The notes beneath the pieces are model-generated. The model ran no database searches, was not told where the DNA came from, and saw nothing but the letters and a program-made list of their open reading frames with translations. DNA of 18,650 bases from UHGV virus genome UHGV-0185506. One strand, given 5' to 3'. The DNA comes from a virus. The position numbers and the translations under genes are program-made. Below are positions 5,160 to 18,650 of this stretch, in pieces (the first letter of the stretch is position 1; every line of letters begins with the position of its first letter).

Positions 5160-6815
5160 ATGAGTACCACAACACGAAAATTTAAAACCATTATCACTGA
5201 TACTGGTGCCCAAAAATTAGCTCAGGCCGCCGCGCCAGATGGTAAGCCTGTCCGCCTGACTCACATGGCCGTGGGCGACGGTGGCGGCACGTTGCCCACA
5301 CCAGACAGTAAGCAGACCTGTCTGGTGCATGAGGTGTGGCGACATACCGTTAATCGCGTCATCCTGGACGCAACACATCAGAACCGCATTATTGCGGAGC
5401 TGGTTATTCCTCCTGAAACGGGCGGATTCTGGGTCCGGGAAATTGGTGTGTTTGATGAGCACGGTGATTTAATTGCGGTGGGCAATACTGCCGAAAGTTA
5501 CAAGCCAACCGTTGCCGAAGGGTCCGGACGTGCGCAAACATTTCGTACCATCTTGACCGTATCCAGCACTGCCACCGTGGAGCTTACCGTGGATAACACC
5601 ATGGTTATGGCCACAGTGGATTACGTGGATGACAAACTGAAAGAGCATGAACAGTCACGACGTCACCCGGACGCCTCGTTGACCGCAAAAGGTTTTACTC
5701 AGTTAAGCAGCGCGACCAACAGTGAATCTGAAACGCTGGCTGCAACTCCGAAAGCGGTTAAGGCAGCGTATGACCTTGCTAACAGAAAATACACCGCTCA
5801 GGACGCCAGCACGGGGCGAAAAGGTCTTGTCCAGTTAAGCAGCGCCACTAACAGTGATTCGGAAACGCTTGCTGCGACTCCGAAAGCAGTGAAAGCAGCG
5901 AATGACAATGCAAACAAGCGAGTACCTAAAGGAGCGGGATTAAATGAGTACGCCGAAAATATAAGTGATATTGCTACTGATTTACGTACGCGTGGTGGCT
6001 TTTTTAATGCTCCCTCAGCAAAGAATGGAATGCCTGGAGGACACACCTGGAAGCACTACATCAACTCTGCACACAGCAATACTCAGGGATACAATACTGT
6101 TATTGGCATTGATTTTAATGGAGATGTAATCGGTTTTGCGGCAGTTTGCGCAGGTGTTTTTAAGGGGTGGAAGTTGATTCATCATGACGGGTATAGCAAC
6201 TTCCCGGTAGGCGCTGCGATCCCGTGGCCTTCTGATTCAGTACCAACAGGCTATGCAATTATGCAGGGGCAGACTTTTGATAAAGCAGCCTATCCCTTGC
6301 TCGCAGCAGCTTATCCGTCAGGGGTGATTCCAGATATGCGCGGCTGGATAATCAAGGGCAAGCCCGCCAGCGGGCGTGCTGTATTGTCACAGGAACAGGA
6401 CGGGATTAAATCGCATACTCACAGTGCCAGTGCGTCAAATACGGATTTAGGAACGAAAACGACCAGTTCATTTGATTACGGCACGAAGACAGTCAGTACG
6501 TTTAACCACGGAACAAAAACCACTAATACAACTGGTAACCATACACATACCATTTACAGAGGGAATGCCAATACTAATGGTGAAACCGGAAAAACAGGTT
6601 TTGACAACCCATCGTTTAATGGCACATCAGGAGCTGCCGGGAATCATGCCCACACGGTAGATATCGGCTCACATAATCATACGGTTGGTATTGGTGCCCA
6701 TACGCACACAGTGGCATTAGGTGCGCACGGGCACACCATCACGGTAAATGCTACGGGTAATTCAGAGAACACCGTAAAAAACATTGCATATAACTATATT
6801 GTGAGGCTCGCATGA
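5160..6815 (+). CDS. H: Tail fibre protein H: conserved P2-type N-terminus, mosaic C-terminus with HxH (gp37-like) repeats
   Basis: N-terminus [23 protein letters not shown]... and duplicated [22 protein letters not shown] motifs are hallmarks of P2-type fibres. C-terminus [36 protein letters not shown]...NYIVRLA matches the HxH-repeat ends of Stf/gp37-type fibres. Confidence 0.9.
5696..5898 (+). repeat. Imperfect tandem direct repeat of about 75-80 bp inside H, encoding the duplicated QLSSATNS(E/D)[14 protein letters not shown] motif
   Basis: Two near-identical DNA blocks starting near 5696 and 5819 (…cagttaagcagcgc…gaaacgct…gctgc…actccgaaagc…). Confidence 0.8.
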
Positions 6816-7678
6816 TTAAGTTAATTCTTTCAGAGCCAGTCCATGAAATGGCAGATGCGTTTAAACGCGTTTTTGGCAATACCGACAATGTGGACGTTGT
6901 AGAAAAACCATTTGAAGCAATCTCAGAATTTGACTGCATGGTAAGTGCGGCAAACAGTTTCGGGCTAATGGATGGCGGCGTGGATGCTGCCATTACCGCA
7001 TTTTTTGGTACTCAACTACAGACGCGTGTTCAGAATCATATTATTCGTGAATATCTTGGTGAACAGCCCGTAGGGTCTGCTTTTGTTATTGAAACGGGGC
7101 ATAATCATCACCCCTGGCTGGTACATGCGCCAACAATGCGTGTTCCGCTGACAATTGACGGAACAGACGCTGTATATAACGCCACGTGGGCCGCTCTGCT
7201 TGCCATCTTTCAGCACAATAAAAATGCAACGACAGACAGGAAAATAAAAACGGTGGTATTACCTGCAATGGGGGCCGGATGTGGTCAGGTGCCGTTTGAA
7301 AGTGTTGCCCGGCAGATGAAGCTGGCATGGGATAACTTTAATAAAACAGAATCAATTAACTGGGAATACGCATATTCCCGCCAGTGGGCGGTATTTAACA
7401 CATGTGCATACTGCCCCGGTAAATCTGGTTGTCGTTATGCTGATATTAAATATATTGGATGTGGTGATTACCGTACGTATTGCTTACGGTCAGGGCAGGT
7501 ATGTATTAACCCTGAACATCAGGTTGATGACGTGCTGACTAATAATCGCTCTCGCCCGGGGGCACATATACACCAGATTAATCCGGTAAAACCCGTAGGT
7601 AACGTTACCATTGGCGCACACAGCCACGGAAGGAATATCACCATTGGTGCTCATTCCCATACAACCAATAAACAATAA
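6812..7678 (+). CDS. Macro-domain (ADP-ribose binding/hydrolase fold) protein with a Cys-rich, HxH-repeat fibre-tip-like C-terminus
   Basis: ATG overlaps the H stop (ATGA), with SD GAGG upstream. Macro signature: [19 protein letters not shown] (compare NAAN..L..GGGV..AI), LVHAPTM (compare H-VGP), [14 protein letters not shown] (compare FPAISTGIYGYP). C-terminus carries CxxC...C...C and GAHIH/GAHSHG/GAHSHT repeats like the H tip. Confidence 0.6.
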
Positions 7679-7708
7679 TTCTGTCTCTGACATTAAGTAG
7701 AGGTGAAC

Positions 7709-8287
7709 ATGACTTTCAGAATGAGTGCTGAAGCACAAACCATTCGCGTATTTAATTATCTCGATGGTACAAATGAATTTATTGGTGAAAGCGATATGTA
7801 CATTCCACCACATACAGGCTTACCCGCAAACTGTACAGATATTGCACCTCCAGATATTCCGGCTGGCTATGCTGCCGTTTTCAATGCAGACGAAATGAAA
7901 TGGCATCTGATGGAAGACCATCGCGGAAAGACTGTATACGAAACGAAAACAGGAGCAGCAATTTATATTTCTGAGCTTGGAGCATTACCTCCTGACGTAA
8001 CAACAATTTCTCCGACTGGCAATTATCAGAAATGGAATGGTAATGTGTGGGTGGATGATGAAAATGCAGAGCATGATGCGCTTGTCAGAGCAGCTGAGTC
8101 TCAGAAAAAAGAACTACTCAGAAATGCAAGTGAAATAATCACTATCTTGCAGGATGCCGTTGATTTAAGCATTGCGACAAAGGAAGAAATAATGTTACTA
8201 AATGAGTGGAAGATGTATCGTATATTATTGAACAGGATTGATACATCAATGACACTAAATATCCAGTGGCCAACCTCCCCACAGTAA
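7709..8287 (+). CDS. Tail fibre assembly protein (gpG / Tfa family)
   Basis: Position directly after the fibre gene. C-terminal region (…[26 protein letters not shown]) matches the conserved tail-fibre-assembly C-terminal domain. SD GAGGTG before the ATG at 7709; the track start at 7703 is a GTG two codons upstream. Confidence 0.75.
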
Positions 8288-8317: not shown

Positions 8318-9052
8318 TTAATTGCGGCTGGATAGTTTAAATTGTTTAATTTTTGCTTTTATGGTGTTTTTCAGCGAGTACGACGGCACCCATTTTAAAG
8401 CAACCTGCCAAGGACGAGGCGAGCCATGAAAACATACTATTCTGGCGTTTTCAGGCACTGACCCATTGGCCAAACCATCATGTAGTTCAGCATTGAAACC
8501 AATCATTTTAGGTGTGGCAATATTTGCTTTATAACTCACAATAAATCCGGGAAGAACATCCTGCCAACGTTCTGCGTCAGGATATATTTCACTGATAAAT
8601 CCCTGATCACCGTGATAAGGAGGTAATTTATTCCTGGACATTATCTGTTCAGCATTATCCTTGAAAGCATTCCAAGCACGGTATTTTTCCTTTGCTGGAA
8701 TAAACATAATACCAGAAGCAGCGGGAGCATTTTCTTTACCGACGCATGAGAAATCGGTAAGCATTGTCATATTCTGCAAATTGGTGAATTCATGTAGATC
8801 GCCCGTAATAACGGTATCGATATCTATATAAAGTATATCTTCCTTTCCAATAACAGGGTGTTCTGGATTGAATAATTCTATTTTCGCCCACCATCCCGGC
8901 CAATTATAAAGAAGCGGCGCAGTTTCTACTCCCTCAATGTAAACTGCGTCTGTTAAACATACTGAACGAATACCCCTGATTTGCTGGTGTAGCCATTGGG
9001 CATGCTTGGGGGTGAAATCTTTGCTACAACGAAGGACTGAAACAACCAGCAC
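8318..9052 (-). CDS. Putative GT-A fold glycosyltransferase, GT8-like (DxD motif); cargo (moron) gene
   Basis: GTG start at 9052 with SD AGGAG 6 nt upstream. WAKIEL...KEDILYIDIDTVITGDL parallels the remembered LgtC segment ARLKL...DKVLYLDIDVLVRDSL. ASGIMFIPAKEKYRAW parallels NAGVLLINLKKWRR. C-terminal FHGSPRPW resembles the GT8 HxxGxxKPW motif. AT-rich relative to the core phage genes. Confidence 0.5.
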   Translation of the reverse strand: MLVVSVLRCSKDFTPKHAQWLHQQIRGIRSVCLTDAVYIEGVETAPLLYNWPGWWAKIELFNPEHPVIGKEDILYIDIDTVITGDLHEFTNLQNMTMLTDFSCVGKENAPAASGIMFIPAKEKYRAWNAFKDNAEQIMSRNKLPPYHGDQGFISEIYPDAERWQDVLPGFIVSYKANIATPKMIGFNAELHDGLANGSVPENARIVCFHGSPRPWQVALKWVPSYSLKNTIKAKIKQFKLSSRN

Positions 9053-15110: not shown

Positions 15111-16220
15111 ATGACCGATACCACCATGCAATTGCTCAGTCAGGGCACAGACCCCGTGAAAATGCCGGATTTTGATATTCTTGCGGAGGGTAAAACGCTG
15201 TCAGGCGTGGCAGAGCGCCTGATGAGCCTGTCACTGACCGACAACCGGGGATTTGAGGCGGACCAGCTCACCATCACGCTGGATGATGCGGATGGTCAGT
15301 TGCAGCTACCGCCACGGGGCGCGCGCCTGACGGTTCTCATTGGCTGGAAAGGAGAACCGCTGACAGAAAAAGGCACTTACATTGTTGATGAAATCGCTCA
15401 CGAAGGACCGCCAGACAGGCTGACAGTTTCAGCCAGAAGCGCAGATTTTCGGGATGAATTTAACGTTAAACGTGAGGTGTCCTGGCATGATGTGACCGTT
15501 GAGCGTGTGGTATCCGCCATCGCTCATCGGTATGGTCTGAAACCGCAAATCAGCGAAATGCTGATGGATATCGAAATCGACCACGCCGACCAGACCGAAG
15601 AAAGCGACATGTCCTTCCTTACGCGCATGGCGGAAATGCTGGGCGCAATCACTACGGTAAAAAGCGGTAATCTGTTATTCATCATGCCAGGCGGTGGCGT
15701 GAACGCGCAGGGCCAGCCGTTGCCCTCGTTCGCCATCACACGCAGCAGCGGCGATCGCCATCAGTTCCGCATTGCTGACCGAGAGGCGTATACGGGGGTA
15801 CGCGCTTACTGGCTTGATCTTAATTACGGGAAAAAGAAAAAAGTCAGCGTGAAACGCCGCAAACCGCAAAAACCCAAAAAGGAGAAAAGCAGCAGCCGTG
15901 AAGGTGATTATATGGAAGGCGCGGAAGGCAATGTGTTTGTGTTACGCAAGACTTATCAGAACGAGCAGGCAGCAAGACGCGCAGCGGCGGCAAAGTGGCA
16001 GCAGCTACAACGCGGAGCCGCATCATTCTCCATCACGCTGGCGCGTGGACGCGCAGAACTCTATCCCGAAATGCATGGCACGGTAGCAGGCTTTAAAAGC
16101 GAGATTGATAATCAGGACTGGATTATTGCAAAAGCCGAGCACACCATTGATAACAGCGGCTTTACCACGCAGCTTGAGCTTGAGGCAAAAATCCCGGAAT
16201 GGATAGCGGAAACAGAGTGA
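15111..16220 (+). CDS. D: Late tail gene D product (P2 gpD-like)
   Basis: ATG at 15111 with SD GAGGGAG. …LSLTDNRGFEADQLTITLDDADG…RSADFRDEFNVKREVSWHD…ITRSSGDRHQFRIADREAYTGVRA…WLDLN… matches the remembered gpD throughout. The track ORF start at 14979 is an upstream extension. Confidence 0.9.
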   Translation: MTDTTMQLLSQGTDPVKMPDFDILAEGKTLSGVAERLMSLSLTDNRGFEADQLTITLDDADGQLQLPPRGARLTVLIGWKGEPLTEKGTYIVDEIAHEGPPDRLTVSARSADFRDEFNVKREVSWHDVTVERVVSAIAHRYGLKPQISEMLMDIEIDHADQTEESDMSFLTRMAEMLGAITTVKSGNLLFIMPGGGVNAQGQPLPSFAITRSSGDRHQFRIADREAYTGVRAYWLDLNYGKKKKVSVKRRKPQKPKKEKSSSREGDYMEGAEGNVFVLRKTYQNEQAARRAAAAKWQQLQRGAASFSITLARGRAELYPEMHGTVAGFKSEIDNQDWIIAKAEHTIDNSGFTTQLELEAKIPEWIAETE

Positions 16221-16261
16221 GCAACTTAGAATAGCGGCAGCACTACGTTAAGGGGGTTGCC

Positions 16262-16522
16262 ATGTTCCGTTGTCCGCTTTGTGGCGCATCTGCCCGTATC
16301 CGCACCAGTCGTTCGGAAAATGATTCAGATACCGTACGGAAAAAATATTACCAGTGTAACAACCTGGAATGCGGCGTATGCTTCTCAACACTGGAAGCTT
16401 TCCATAAATTCACATCGAAACACGCCTCCGGCGTTCACTCTTCAGATGGTATCCCGTGGCATGAGCTGCCAGCTTCACACAGGGGAAACAATCAGATGAG
16501 TTTGCCTTTACCTCAGAATTAA
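16262..16522 (+). CDS. ogr: Late gene transcription activator, Ogr/Delta zinc-finger family
   Basis: MFRCPLCGASARIRTSR…YYQCNNLECGVCF carries the CxxC…CxxC arrangement and N-terminal similarity to the remembered P2 Ogr. SD AAGGGGG upstream. Confidence 0.85.
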   Translation: MFRCPLCGASARIRTSRSENDSDTVRKKYYQCNNLECGVCFSTLEAFHKFTSKHASGVHSSDGIPWHELPASHRGNNQMSLPLPQN

Positions 16523-16712
16523 CAGGCAGAATTGCCGGAGCAACAAAAAAGCGATAGATTACGCGCGGGTGCCTTTCGGCTGATGGTCGGAGGGAATACC
16601 CGAAGGCCAGATGTGGAAAGGCCCCGGAAAACATTTTTGTTTAACCGAGGCCCTAACCGTCTACCCTAAGCAAGTGATAGGTTAGCGCCTCCCCGAAAAA
16701 GGAGCAAGCGCT

Positions 16713-16853
16713 ATGTCGCAAAAATCGCTTATGGCCATCACGTTCTGCGTGACGGCAATCCTCATCATCTGGATGCTGCACGGTTCGCTGTGCGAAATAC
16801 GGATGAGCTTCTGGGGAGCGGAGTTTGCGGCGTTCTTACAGTGTAAGCAGTAA
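16713..16853 (+). CDS. Hok/Gef-family type I toxin (46 aa); absent from the ORF track because of its length
   Basis: Translation MSQKSLMAITFCVTAILIIWMLHGSLCEIRMSFWGAEFAAFLQCKQ. One TM helix followed by the SLCEIR…AAF signature, as in Hok (…[23 protein letters not shown]). SD AAGGAG 6 nt upstream of the ATG. Confidence 0.65.
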   Translation: MSQKSLMAITFCVTAILIIWMLHGSLCEIRMSFWGAEFAAFLQCKQ

Positions 16854-16942
16854 GGAAACCGCGACGGGGGAGCAATCCCCCGTCAATCGGTTGCCAGGGT
16901 AAGGTCGATAAGGCACCCTATCTCACAGACATGAACAACAAA

Positions 16943-16974
16943 CCCGCAGCATAAAAACTGCGGGTTTTCTTTTT
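16943..16974 (+). terminator. Intrinsic terminator downstream of the hok-like gene
   Basis: CCCGCAG-cataaaaa-CTGCGGG followed by ttttcttttt. Confidence 0.7.
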
Positions 16975-17120
16975 GGTGTCCTCACCGACTTGAAACAGTG
17001 ATCAGACTATAAGACAAAGCCCACAATGTAGCGGGCTTACTCCCCTCCCCCCACTAAATGTGGACACATCGTGGAACGAAGAGATATAAAACATTATAAA
17101 TCAATTGGTTATTGAAAGAA

Positions 17121-17150
17121 AAAAGGCCGCAGAGCGGCCTTTTTAGTTAG
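17121..17150 (-). terminator. ihfA intrinsic terminator (bidirectional hairpin)
   Basis: aaaaaa-GGCCGC-agag-GCGGCC-ttttt immediately downstream of the ihfA stop. Confidence 0.75.
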
Positions 17151-17156
17151 ATCAGA

Positions 17157-17456
17157 TTACTCGTCTTTGGGCGAAGCGTTTTCGACCCGGCTTTTTAACT
17201 TCTGCCCTGGTCTGAAGGTCACCACGCGCCGTGCTGTAATGGGAATATCTTCGCCCGTTTTCGGGTTACGTCCCGGACGTTGATTCTTATCACGCAGATC
17301 GAAGTTACCAAAGCCAGAGAGTTTTACCTGCTCGCCGTTTTCCAGAGCGCGACGGATCTCTTCGAAAAACAGTTCAACCAGTTCTTTGGCATCCCGCTTG
17401 CTAAGCCCAAGCTTATCAAACAGATATTCTGACATTTCAGCTTTTGTAAGCGCCAT
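17157..17456 (-). CDS. ihfA: Integration host factor alpha subunit
   Basis: 99-aa translation ([99 protein letters not shown]) matches E. coli IhfA as I recall it. Confidence 0.95.
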
Positions 17457-17460
17457 AGGT

Positions 17461-18650
<1,190 letters not shown>

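Follow-up and report, generated by a model that had tools for sequence, protein, structure and literature searches.

Evidence for a P2-like Prophage Right End beside ihfA in Escherichia coli, with the ihfA Intrinsic Terminator as Its Attachment Core

Genes and Features at the Locus

The stretch of viral DNA considered here, UHGV-0185506 (hereafter 'the window'), is 18,650 nucleotides in length and carries P2-type late genes, i.e., those for tail sheath, tube, and tape measure along with gpD and ogr, in conserved order. Toward its right end the gene order is gpD (ending at 16220), ogr, a hok ORF, and then, on the minus strand, ihfA and pheT. The late-gene activator ogr (16262-16522, plus strand; Pfam Ogr_Delta, E 2.4e-14) is approximately 96-97% identical, at the nucleotide level, to its equivalents in phages P88, Chuche, and P884B11. 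The hok toxin ORF which follows it (16713-16853, plus strand) is 46 amino acids in length. The host gene ihfA (17157-17456, minus strand) carries the Pfam domain Bac_DNA_binding and is part of a longer region of host DNA. That is, homology to E. coli K-12 starts exactly at 17115, from which point a single BLAST alignment (query 16400-17600) extends at 98.8% nucleotide identity through ihfA and pheT, covering 17115-17600. In K-12 the order of genes is btuD-btuE-btuC-ihfA-pheT, with a spacer of 100 bp between btuC and ihfA. From the window btuC is absent, and phage DNA occupies its place beside ihfA.

The reading for which I argue, and which I hold to be nearly certain, is that a tyrosine integrase inserted a P2-like (P88/Xuanwuvirus-like) prophage between ihfA and btuC, and that positions 16523-17139 constitute the right end (attR) of that prophage. 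Within that interval 16523-17114 is all phage, and 17115-17139 is the attachment core. A preliminary description of this DNA had placed a prophage-host junction inside of 16523-17156, immediately downstream of ihfA and at the position of btuC in K-12. Both points stand, the first given the K-12 alignment as well as comparison of lysogen attachment sites, which put the junction at the far right end of that interval, and the second given K-12 gene order in combination with the same alignment. Alignment to the prophage-free ihfA-btuC region of K-12 indeed breaks at 17115, and the interval is not ordinary host DNA.

It had been proposed as well that no tRNA is involved, and ARAGORN found none across 15500-18650. 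As the target moreover is the terminator of a protein gene, this thus is not integration of the tRNA- or tmRNA-targeting type, in which a tRNA or tmRNA gene would have its 3' end within the core. Two other elements of the preliminary description require revision. Phage genes do not end with ogr at 16522, as hok follows it as the final phage gene and the phage arm extends beyond, to 17114. Nor does the attachment core lie between ogr and the ihfA terminator, since the core is that terminator itself, which in related lysogens is duplicated at the btuC end. For purposes of annotation, the prophage boundary is here set to the base, hok is counted as part of the phage, and attB is recognised in the ihfA terminator.

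The Attachment Core

The attR core, AAAGAAAAAAGGCCGCAGAGCGGCC, is 25 bp in length (17115-17139) and is identical to that seen at both attL and attR of the lysogens STEC1589 and SE11, as well as at the empty K-12 site. It is somewhere within these 25 bp that the crossover between phage and host is located. The window holds attR only, with the core there in single copy, so that it was correct to say that the core could not be identified from one end. Duplication is demonstrated in related lysogens, which are 94-97% identical over the window, and the other prophage end along with the direct repeat has been located in three of these, namely STEC1589, SE11, and O104:H4. In SE11 the core copies are found at record positions 1,928,706 and 1,964,508, while between the two O104:H4 core copies 23 of 25 positions agree. 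The order at attL is btuC side, core, and then ATAAACAC; at attR it is GGTTATTG, core, and then TTTTTAGTTAG, the latter being the ihfA side; and at attB it is btuC side, core, and then ihfA side.

As read on the ihfA strand, the core consists of GGCCGCTCTGCGGCC and then TTTTTTCTTT, that is, of a hairpin followed by a T-tract, and the 25-bp core is shown in this manner to be the ihfA intrinsic terminator. This rho-independent terminator covers 17115-17144 (minus strand), with its hairpin, GGCCGC-AGA-GCGGCC, at 17125-17139, its minus-strand T-tract at 17115-17124, and a flanking A-run from 17119. The corresponding RNA fold is of -18.4 kcal/mol (z -3.95). A terminator scan called the K-12 copy of this terminator but missed that of the window, where the attR tail, following an extended A/T stem, has four T in eight bases while the scan needs five. 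As both copies agree in their hairpin and first ten T-tract bases, the missed call is an effect of the scan threshold and is no sign of terminator loss. Indeed, since the same 25 bases are present in the phage, ihfA at attR retains the hairpin along with ten bases of the T-tract. At attL, btuC keeps its whole upstream region, which includes a promoter-like sequence, TTTTCA-17-TAAAAT, that is a prediction and whose -35 would overlap the first three bases of the core. What is seen, that is, is another temperate phage which uses a conserved hairpin, in this case that of an intrinsic terminator rather than of a tRNA, and which rebuilds that hairpin, with neither flanking gene damaged.

The region also resembles a described RNA. 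The Rfam model STnc540 matches 17071-17215 (minus strand) with 39 bits versus a gathering score of 38, and in Salmonella STnc540 is a ProQ-dependent sRNA, derived from the ihfA 3'UTR, which represses mgtB (PMC6315103). It is precisely with the terminator of an STnc540-type ihfA 3'UTR RNA that the phage att core coincides. Alignment to the model breaks down past that terminator, owing to the presence there of phage arm in place of host sequence.

The hairpin loop comes in more than one form. It is AGA in K-12 and in the window, AAA at the empty site of strain 7/2, and, at the O104:H4 locus (L007; cores at 2797-2821 and 40612-40636), AGA at attL and TAA at attR, while at a further locus, L013, the attL loop is TAA. 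At 100% identity, neither an empty site with a TAA loop nor an attR with an AAA loop was found. Such terminator-loop polymorphism could serve to map the crossover. As used here to place the crossover within the core, however, the observed loops favour neither direction and mark neither copy as phage-derived.

Occupancy of the Site and Related Lysogens

Of 5426 complete E. coli genomes, 5118 have the empty K-12 site as one contiguous stretch and 308 have it split, i.e., occupancy of the ihfA terminator attB is approximately 5.7%. This population pattern, of occupied versus empty sites, suggests that integration and excision may take place at the 25-bp core. The best matches to the window as a whole within the E. 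coli collection (82-88% coverage, 94-97% identity) are P2-like prophages found at the same site. In STEC1589, O104:H4, and SE11 an integrase is found at the far end of the prophage, separated from btuC by one or two small ORFs. The integrase, which previously had been expected to lie outside of the window, is in all three a 324-amino acid tyrosine integrase (Pfam Int_N, 1.5e-28; Phage_integrase, 5.3e-20) situated near btuC, 0.5-1 kb from attL.

Searching 50,697 deposited phage genomes for this integrase gave a best match of 56% identity, with P2-type Int at approximately 47%. In GTDB, just two species representatives possess it at 97-98% identity, the next best match being 51% identical. In both of these records the integrase adjoins a btuC which is only 76% identical to that of K-12, and the core is the same, so the conserved terminator is used as a site outside of E. 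coli too. As an aside, one of these two records (contigs L012 and L013) is titled 'Vagococcus sp. WN89Y', which is a Gram-positive name on a contig that looks enterobacterial, suggesting contamination or mislabelling.

One can ask whether the prophage might be a decayed, immobile remnant, with its att features representing nonfunctional relics. No free phage, nor any circular attP form, was found with this int/attP module, and the left end of the prophage is outside of the window, as such a view would allow. In related lysogens, however, the P2-type gene sets are complete, the integrase is intact, and the 25-bp repeats are exact. The same module furthermore is present in diverse E. coli lineages along with the two other genome records, a spread which points to recent mobility. 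That the prophage is a relic is for these reasons considered unlikely.

The P Arm of attP

If 16523-17139 is read as the attR of a P2-like prophage, then the phage P arm occupies 16976-17114, forming an attP arm of 140 bp. Its first portion is a phage spacer which separates the hok terminator from the attP arm sites (16976-17058), as delimited by comparison with TUM1886 and Chuche and by P2 annotation. In other phages this spacer is a point of cargo insertion, with Chuche possessing com/dam genes there. The spacer is followed by tandem integrase arm-type repeats, TGTGGACA cat CGTGGAAC (17059-17077, plus strand; sequence TGTGGACAcatCGTGGAAC), which are in an 11-bp register. The arm pattern, YGTGGWCANNNYGTGGA, was derived from the sites themselves, so that what counts as independent is that it is otherwise unique and that it coincides with P2 Int annotation. 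It has one match in the window (17059-17075) versus 0.01 expected, and elsewhere matches solely the P and P' arms of O104:H4 (L007), Chuche, and P2, including annotated P2 Int sites. Closer still to the host is a predicted IHF site, AATCAATTGGTTA (17099-17111, plus strand), which is a perfect match to the consensus, WATCAANNNNTTR, and is the sole such match within the 18.65-kb window. This predicted site ends 3 bp before the core and is placed as is the annotated IHF site of P2 attP.

Within the spacer is also a hairpin, AAGCCCACAATGTAGCGGGCTT (17017-17038), which, based on its position, may correspond to the P2 ogr terminator. It is found approximately 20 bp before the Int arm sites and is without a plus-strand T-tract. 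Its counterpart position in P2 is occupied by the ogr/F-operon terminator, and in Chuche the same hairpin is found directly after the dam stop codon. This hairpin may be a vestigial terminator or, instead, may act on the opposite strand.

The segment 16975-17145, which includes the P arm, has no match in the phage collection beyond a 76% identical one in Chuche, and in IMG/VR an exact 41-mer spanning P arm, core, and P' arm likewise gave no match. With intact attP thus absent from deposited phage genomes and IMG/VR contigs alike, attP is reconstructed from attL and attR rather than observed. From this dearth of deposited arms, and from the stopping of homology to all deposited phage records, P2-like ones included, at 16926-16981, i.e., just past the hok terminator, it could be argued that the prophage ends at approximately 16975, with its true core nearby and with 16976-17114 representing strain-specific host DNA or the remnant of some other element. 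Against this, a 166-bp stretch consisting of arm plus core (16960-17125) is found in just 392 of the 5426 complete E. coli genomes, with at least 80% of it present in 308, and these 308 full-length copies are equal in number to the split sites. In addition, the segment carries Int arm repeats and an IHF consensus in P2 geometry, its homologue in Chuche is found inside of the phage genome, between dam and int, and K-12 sequence resumes only at 17115, where the 25-mer that is repeated at attL is found. An end to the prophage immediately past hok is thus very improbable.

Considered as a phage arm, the segment can be followed into a further relative, a prophage of TUM1886 located near serS, with which it is common up to the arm and then divergent. 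Given that divergence past the arm, together with the Chuche arm, the int/att module is exchangeable.

The hok Locus

The hok ORF matches Pfam HOK_GEF (PF01848) with 30.2 bits versus a cut-off of 22, and in lysogen as well as phage records is labelled Hok/Gef or 'MokW-like host killing'. Phages P88, Chuche, P884B11, Shae_phiSM, PhiR44_2, and 500465-2 are approximately 95-97% identical to the window over the region that extends from gpD, by way of ogr, to the hok locus. As hok is found downstream of ogr in P88, Chuche, P884B11, and others, the locus is phage cargo and indeed is the last phage gene. To which side of the junction hok belongs had previously been left open, and the ogr-hok order of sequenced phages places it on the phage side. 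Virtually no probability remains for the interval being ordinary host sequence instead, with a chromosomal hok (loci of which do exist in E. coli, hence the possibility having been left open in the preliminary description) beside ihfA and the prophage boundary elsewhere, e.g., at the end of ogr, as K-12 and the 5118 genomes with an empty site have btuC directly after the ihfA terminator, without hok, whereas the ogr-hok arrangement is that of phages P88, Chuche, P884B11, 500465-2, and PhiR44_2.

As phage cargo, hok has the appearance of a type I toxin locus. A hok mRNA of 409 nt would extend from a predicted transcription start near 16567 to 16975 (plus strand; MFE -178.4 kcal/mol, z -8.1), terminating at an intrinsic terminator found at 16940-16967, whose T-run continues to 16975. 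A relaxed hexamer scan predicts a sigma-70 promoter for this mRNA, TTGCCG-17-TAGATT (16532-16560, plus strand), which agrees with the consensus at 8 of 12 positions, while a stricter scan found no promoter at hok. In the predicted fold, the 5' end, 16567-16581, would pair with 16902-16918 in a tac/fbi-like manner. A hok cassette of 83% identity is present in Stx2a phages, spanning 16546-16918 of the window.

The locus resembles the hok/sok loci of plasmid R1 and Stx phages in possessing a Hok/Gef toxin, a long mRNA with (here predicted) 5'-3' pairing, and its own terminator. It differs from these loci in several respects, however. The match to the Rfam sok/hok-leader model, RF01794 (16567-16726), is of 47 bits, which is below the gathering score of 59. 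Promoter scans found no Sok (minus-strand) promoter at the locus. Lastly, the frame found at the position of mok (16670-16843, plus strand), which is open for 58 codons and overlaps hok, has no canonical mok start (ATG, GTG, or TTG).

Comparison with Known Systems

The closest described relative of this junction is that of PP_SE11-4, a P2-like prophage of E. coli SE11 which is listed as being 'between btuC and ihfA', with a 25-nt duplication (Oshima et al. 2008, PMC2608844, Table 2). The SE11 core positions given above agree exactly with the PP_SE11-4 ends and 25-nt duplication as published there. Integration site and repeat size, that is, were already in print in 2008, at least as table entries, and the junction as such is an ordinary and already known one. 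That SE11 table was the only literature found on this site, and its entry is without mention of the repeat being the ihfA terminator or of a P2-like arm architecture. Both of the latter follow directly from routine comparison, and current understanding is not changed by them. The ihfA-terminator-targeting integrase/attP module is absent from the 50,697 deposited phage genomes, though that it should be viewed as one never characterised seems quite doubtful.

PP_SE11-4 and the window share the site, the 25-nt duplication, and the ogr-hok-attR-ihfA right end, and are 96.6% identical over the 1.3-kb junction region. PP_SE11-4 differs in its cargo, D being separated from ogr by an additional gene and int from attL by two ORFs, and in a few bases of the P arm, where its second arm repeat is AGTGGA.

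As judged from its sequence, the junction appears to fit a heterobivalent attachment site of the P2/lambda type, there being a repeat, arm sites, a predicted IHF site, and an integrase. The likeness to phage P2 (NC_001895) extends to a terminator, tandem Int arm repeats (of TGTGGNCA type and in 11-bp register), an IHF site, and then the core, with an arm-to-core spacing of 40 bp in P2 versus 37 bp in the window. The order in the P2 record is ogr terminator, Int P-arm sites, IHF site, attP core, Cox sites, Int P'-arm sites, and int, and P2 is like this prophage group as well in possessing a second repeat pair near int along with a tyrosine integrase. The P2 core, by contrast, is AAAAAATAAGCCCGTGTAAGGGAGATT, as found at its loc sites, and because of that different core the host target also differs. 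The integrases of the two, as noted, share only approximately 47% identity. Unlike P2, furthermore, the prophage group considered here has a hok cassette separating ogr from attP, as well as one additional ORF that separates int from the P' arm.

P88/Xuanwuvirus phages, as well as Chuche and P884B11, present a different pattern of likeness. Nucleotide identity to the window is 95-97% across the structural genes, D, ogr, and hok, as far as the hok terminator, whereas the int/attP modules differ, homology having by then come to its end. In Chuche what follows is an arm that is 76% alike with a core that is different.

Possible Integration Mechanism and Consequences

Integration may be pictured as follows. 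Phage and host copies of the core would recombine, with the terminator duplicated as a result. At attL of the related lysogens the second core copy indeed lies between the phage int operon and btuC, and at the left end in the source genome a second copy of AAAGAAAAAAGGCCGCNNNGCGGCC and then btuC should likewise be found. By analogy with P2, Int would bind to arm as well as core sites, IHF would bend the P arm and thereby give rise to the intasome, and a Cox-like protein would direct excision.

The predicted phage IHF and Int sites would directly adjoin the IHF-alpha gene at its 3' end. One could imagine that lysogeny subtly alters the formation of the 3' ends of ihfA or of its 3'UTR RNA, or alters expression of btuCED, thereby coupling the phage to a needed host factor. 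This seems rather far-fetched as a possibility, though were it so then the phage would be coupled to IHF, a host factor which it requires.

Variable Cargo

The junction between D and ogr differs in content among these prophages. Nothing separates gpD from ogr in the window, where they adjoin each other (16220-16262), in O104:H4 (L007, 37068-39761) a DUF3800 gene and an IS5-family element are found in between, and in SE11 (L008, 35661-37154) there is an unknown gene of 1.15 kb. As contents differ among the three, the D-ogr junction is a variable cargo site in this P2-like phage group. A PADLOC scan of neighbouring cargo ORFs and of the ORF beside int gave no matches.

Two further ORFs elsewhere in the window may also be pointed out. 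The first, 288 amino acids in length (6812-7678, plus strand), encodes a Macro domain (PF01661, E 4e-18), has no PADLOC match, and is found between a tail-fibre gene (5160-6815) and a tail-fibre assembly gene (7703-8287), which is an unusual position for an ADP-ribose-binding or -hydrolase domain. The second, of 244 amino acids (8318-9052, minus strand) and with no Pfam or PADLOC match, is oppositely oriented and separates the tail-fibre assembly gene from gpU, a position which in related prophages is one of varied cargo, i.e., GmrSD, HxsB, DUF6645, or serine acetyltransferase.
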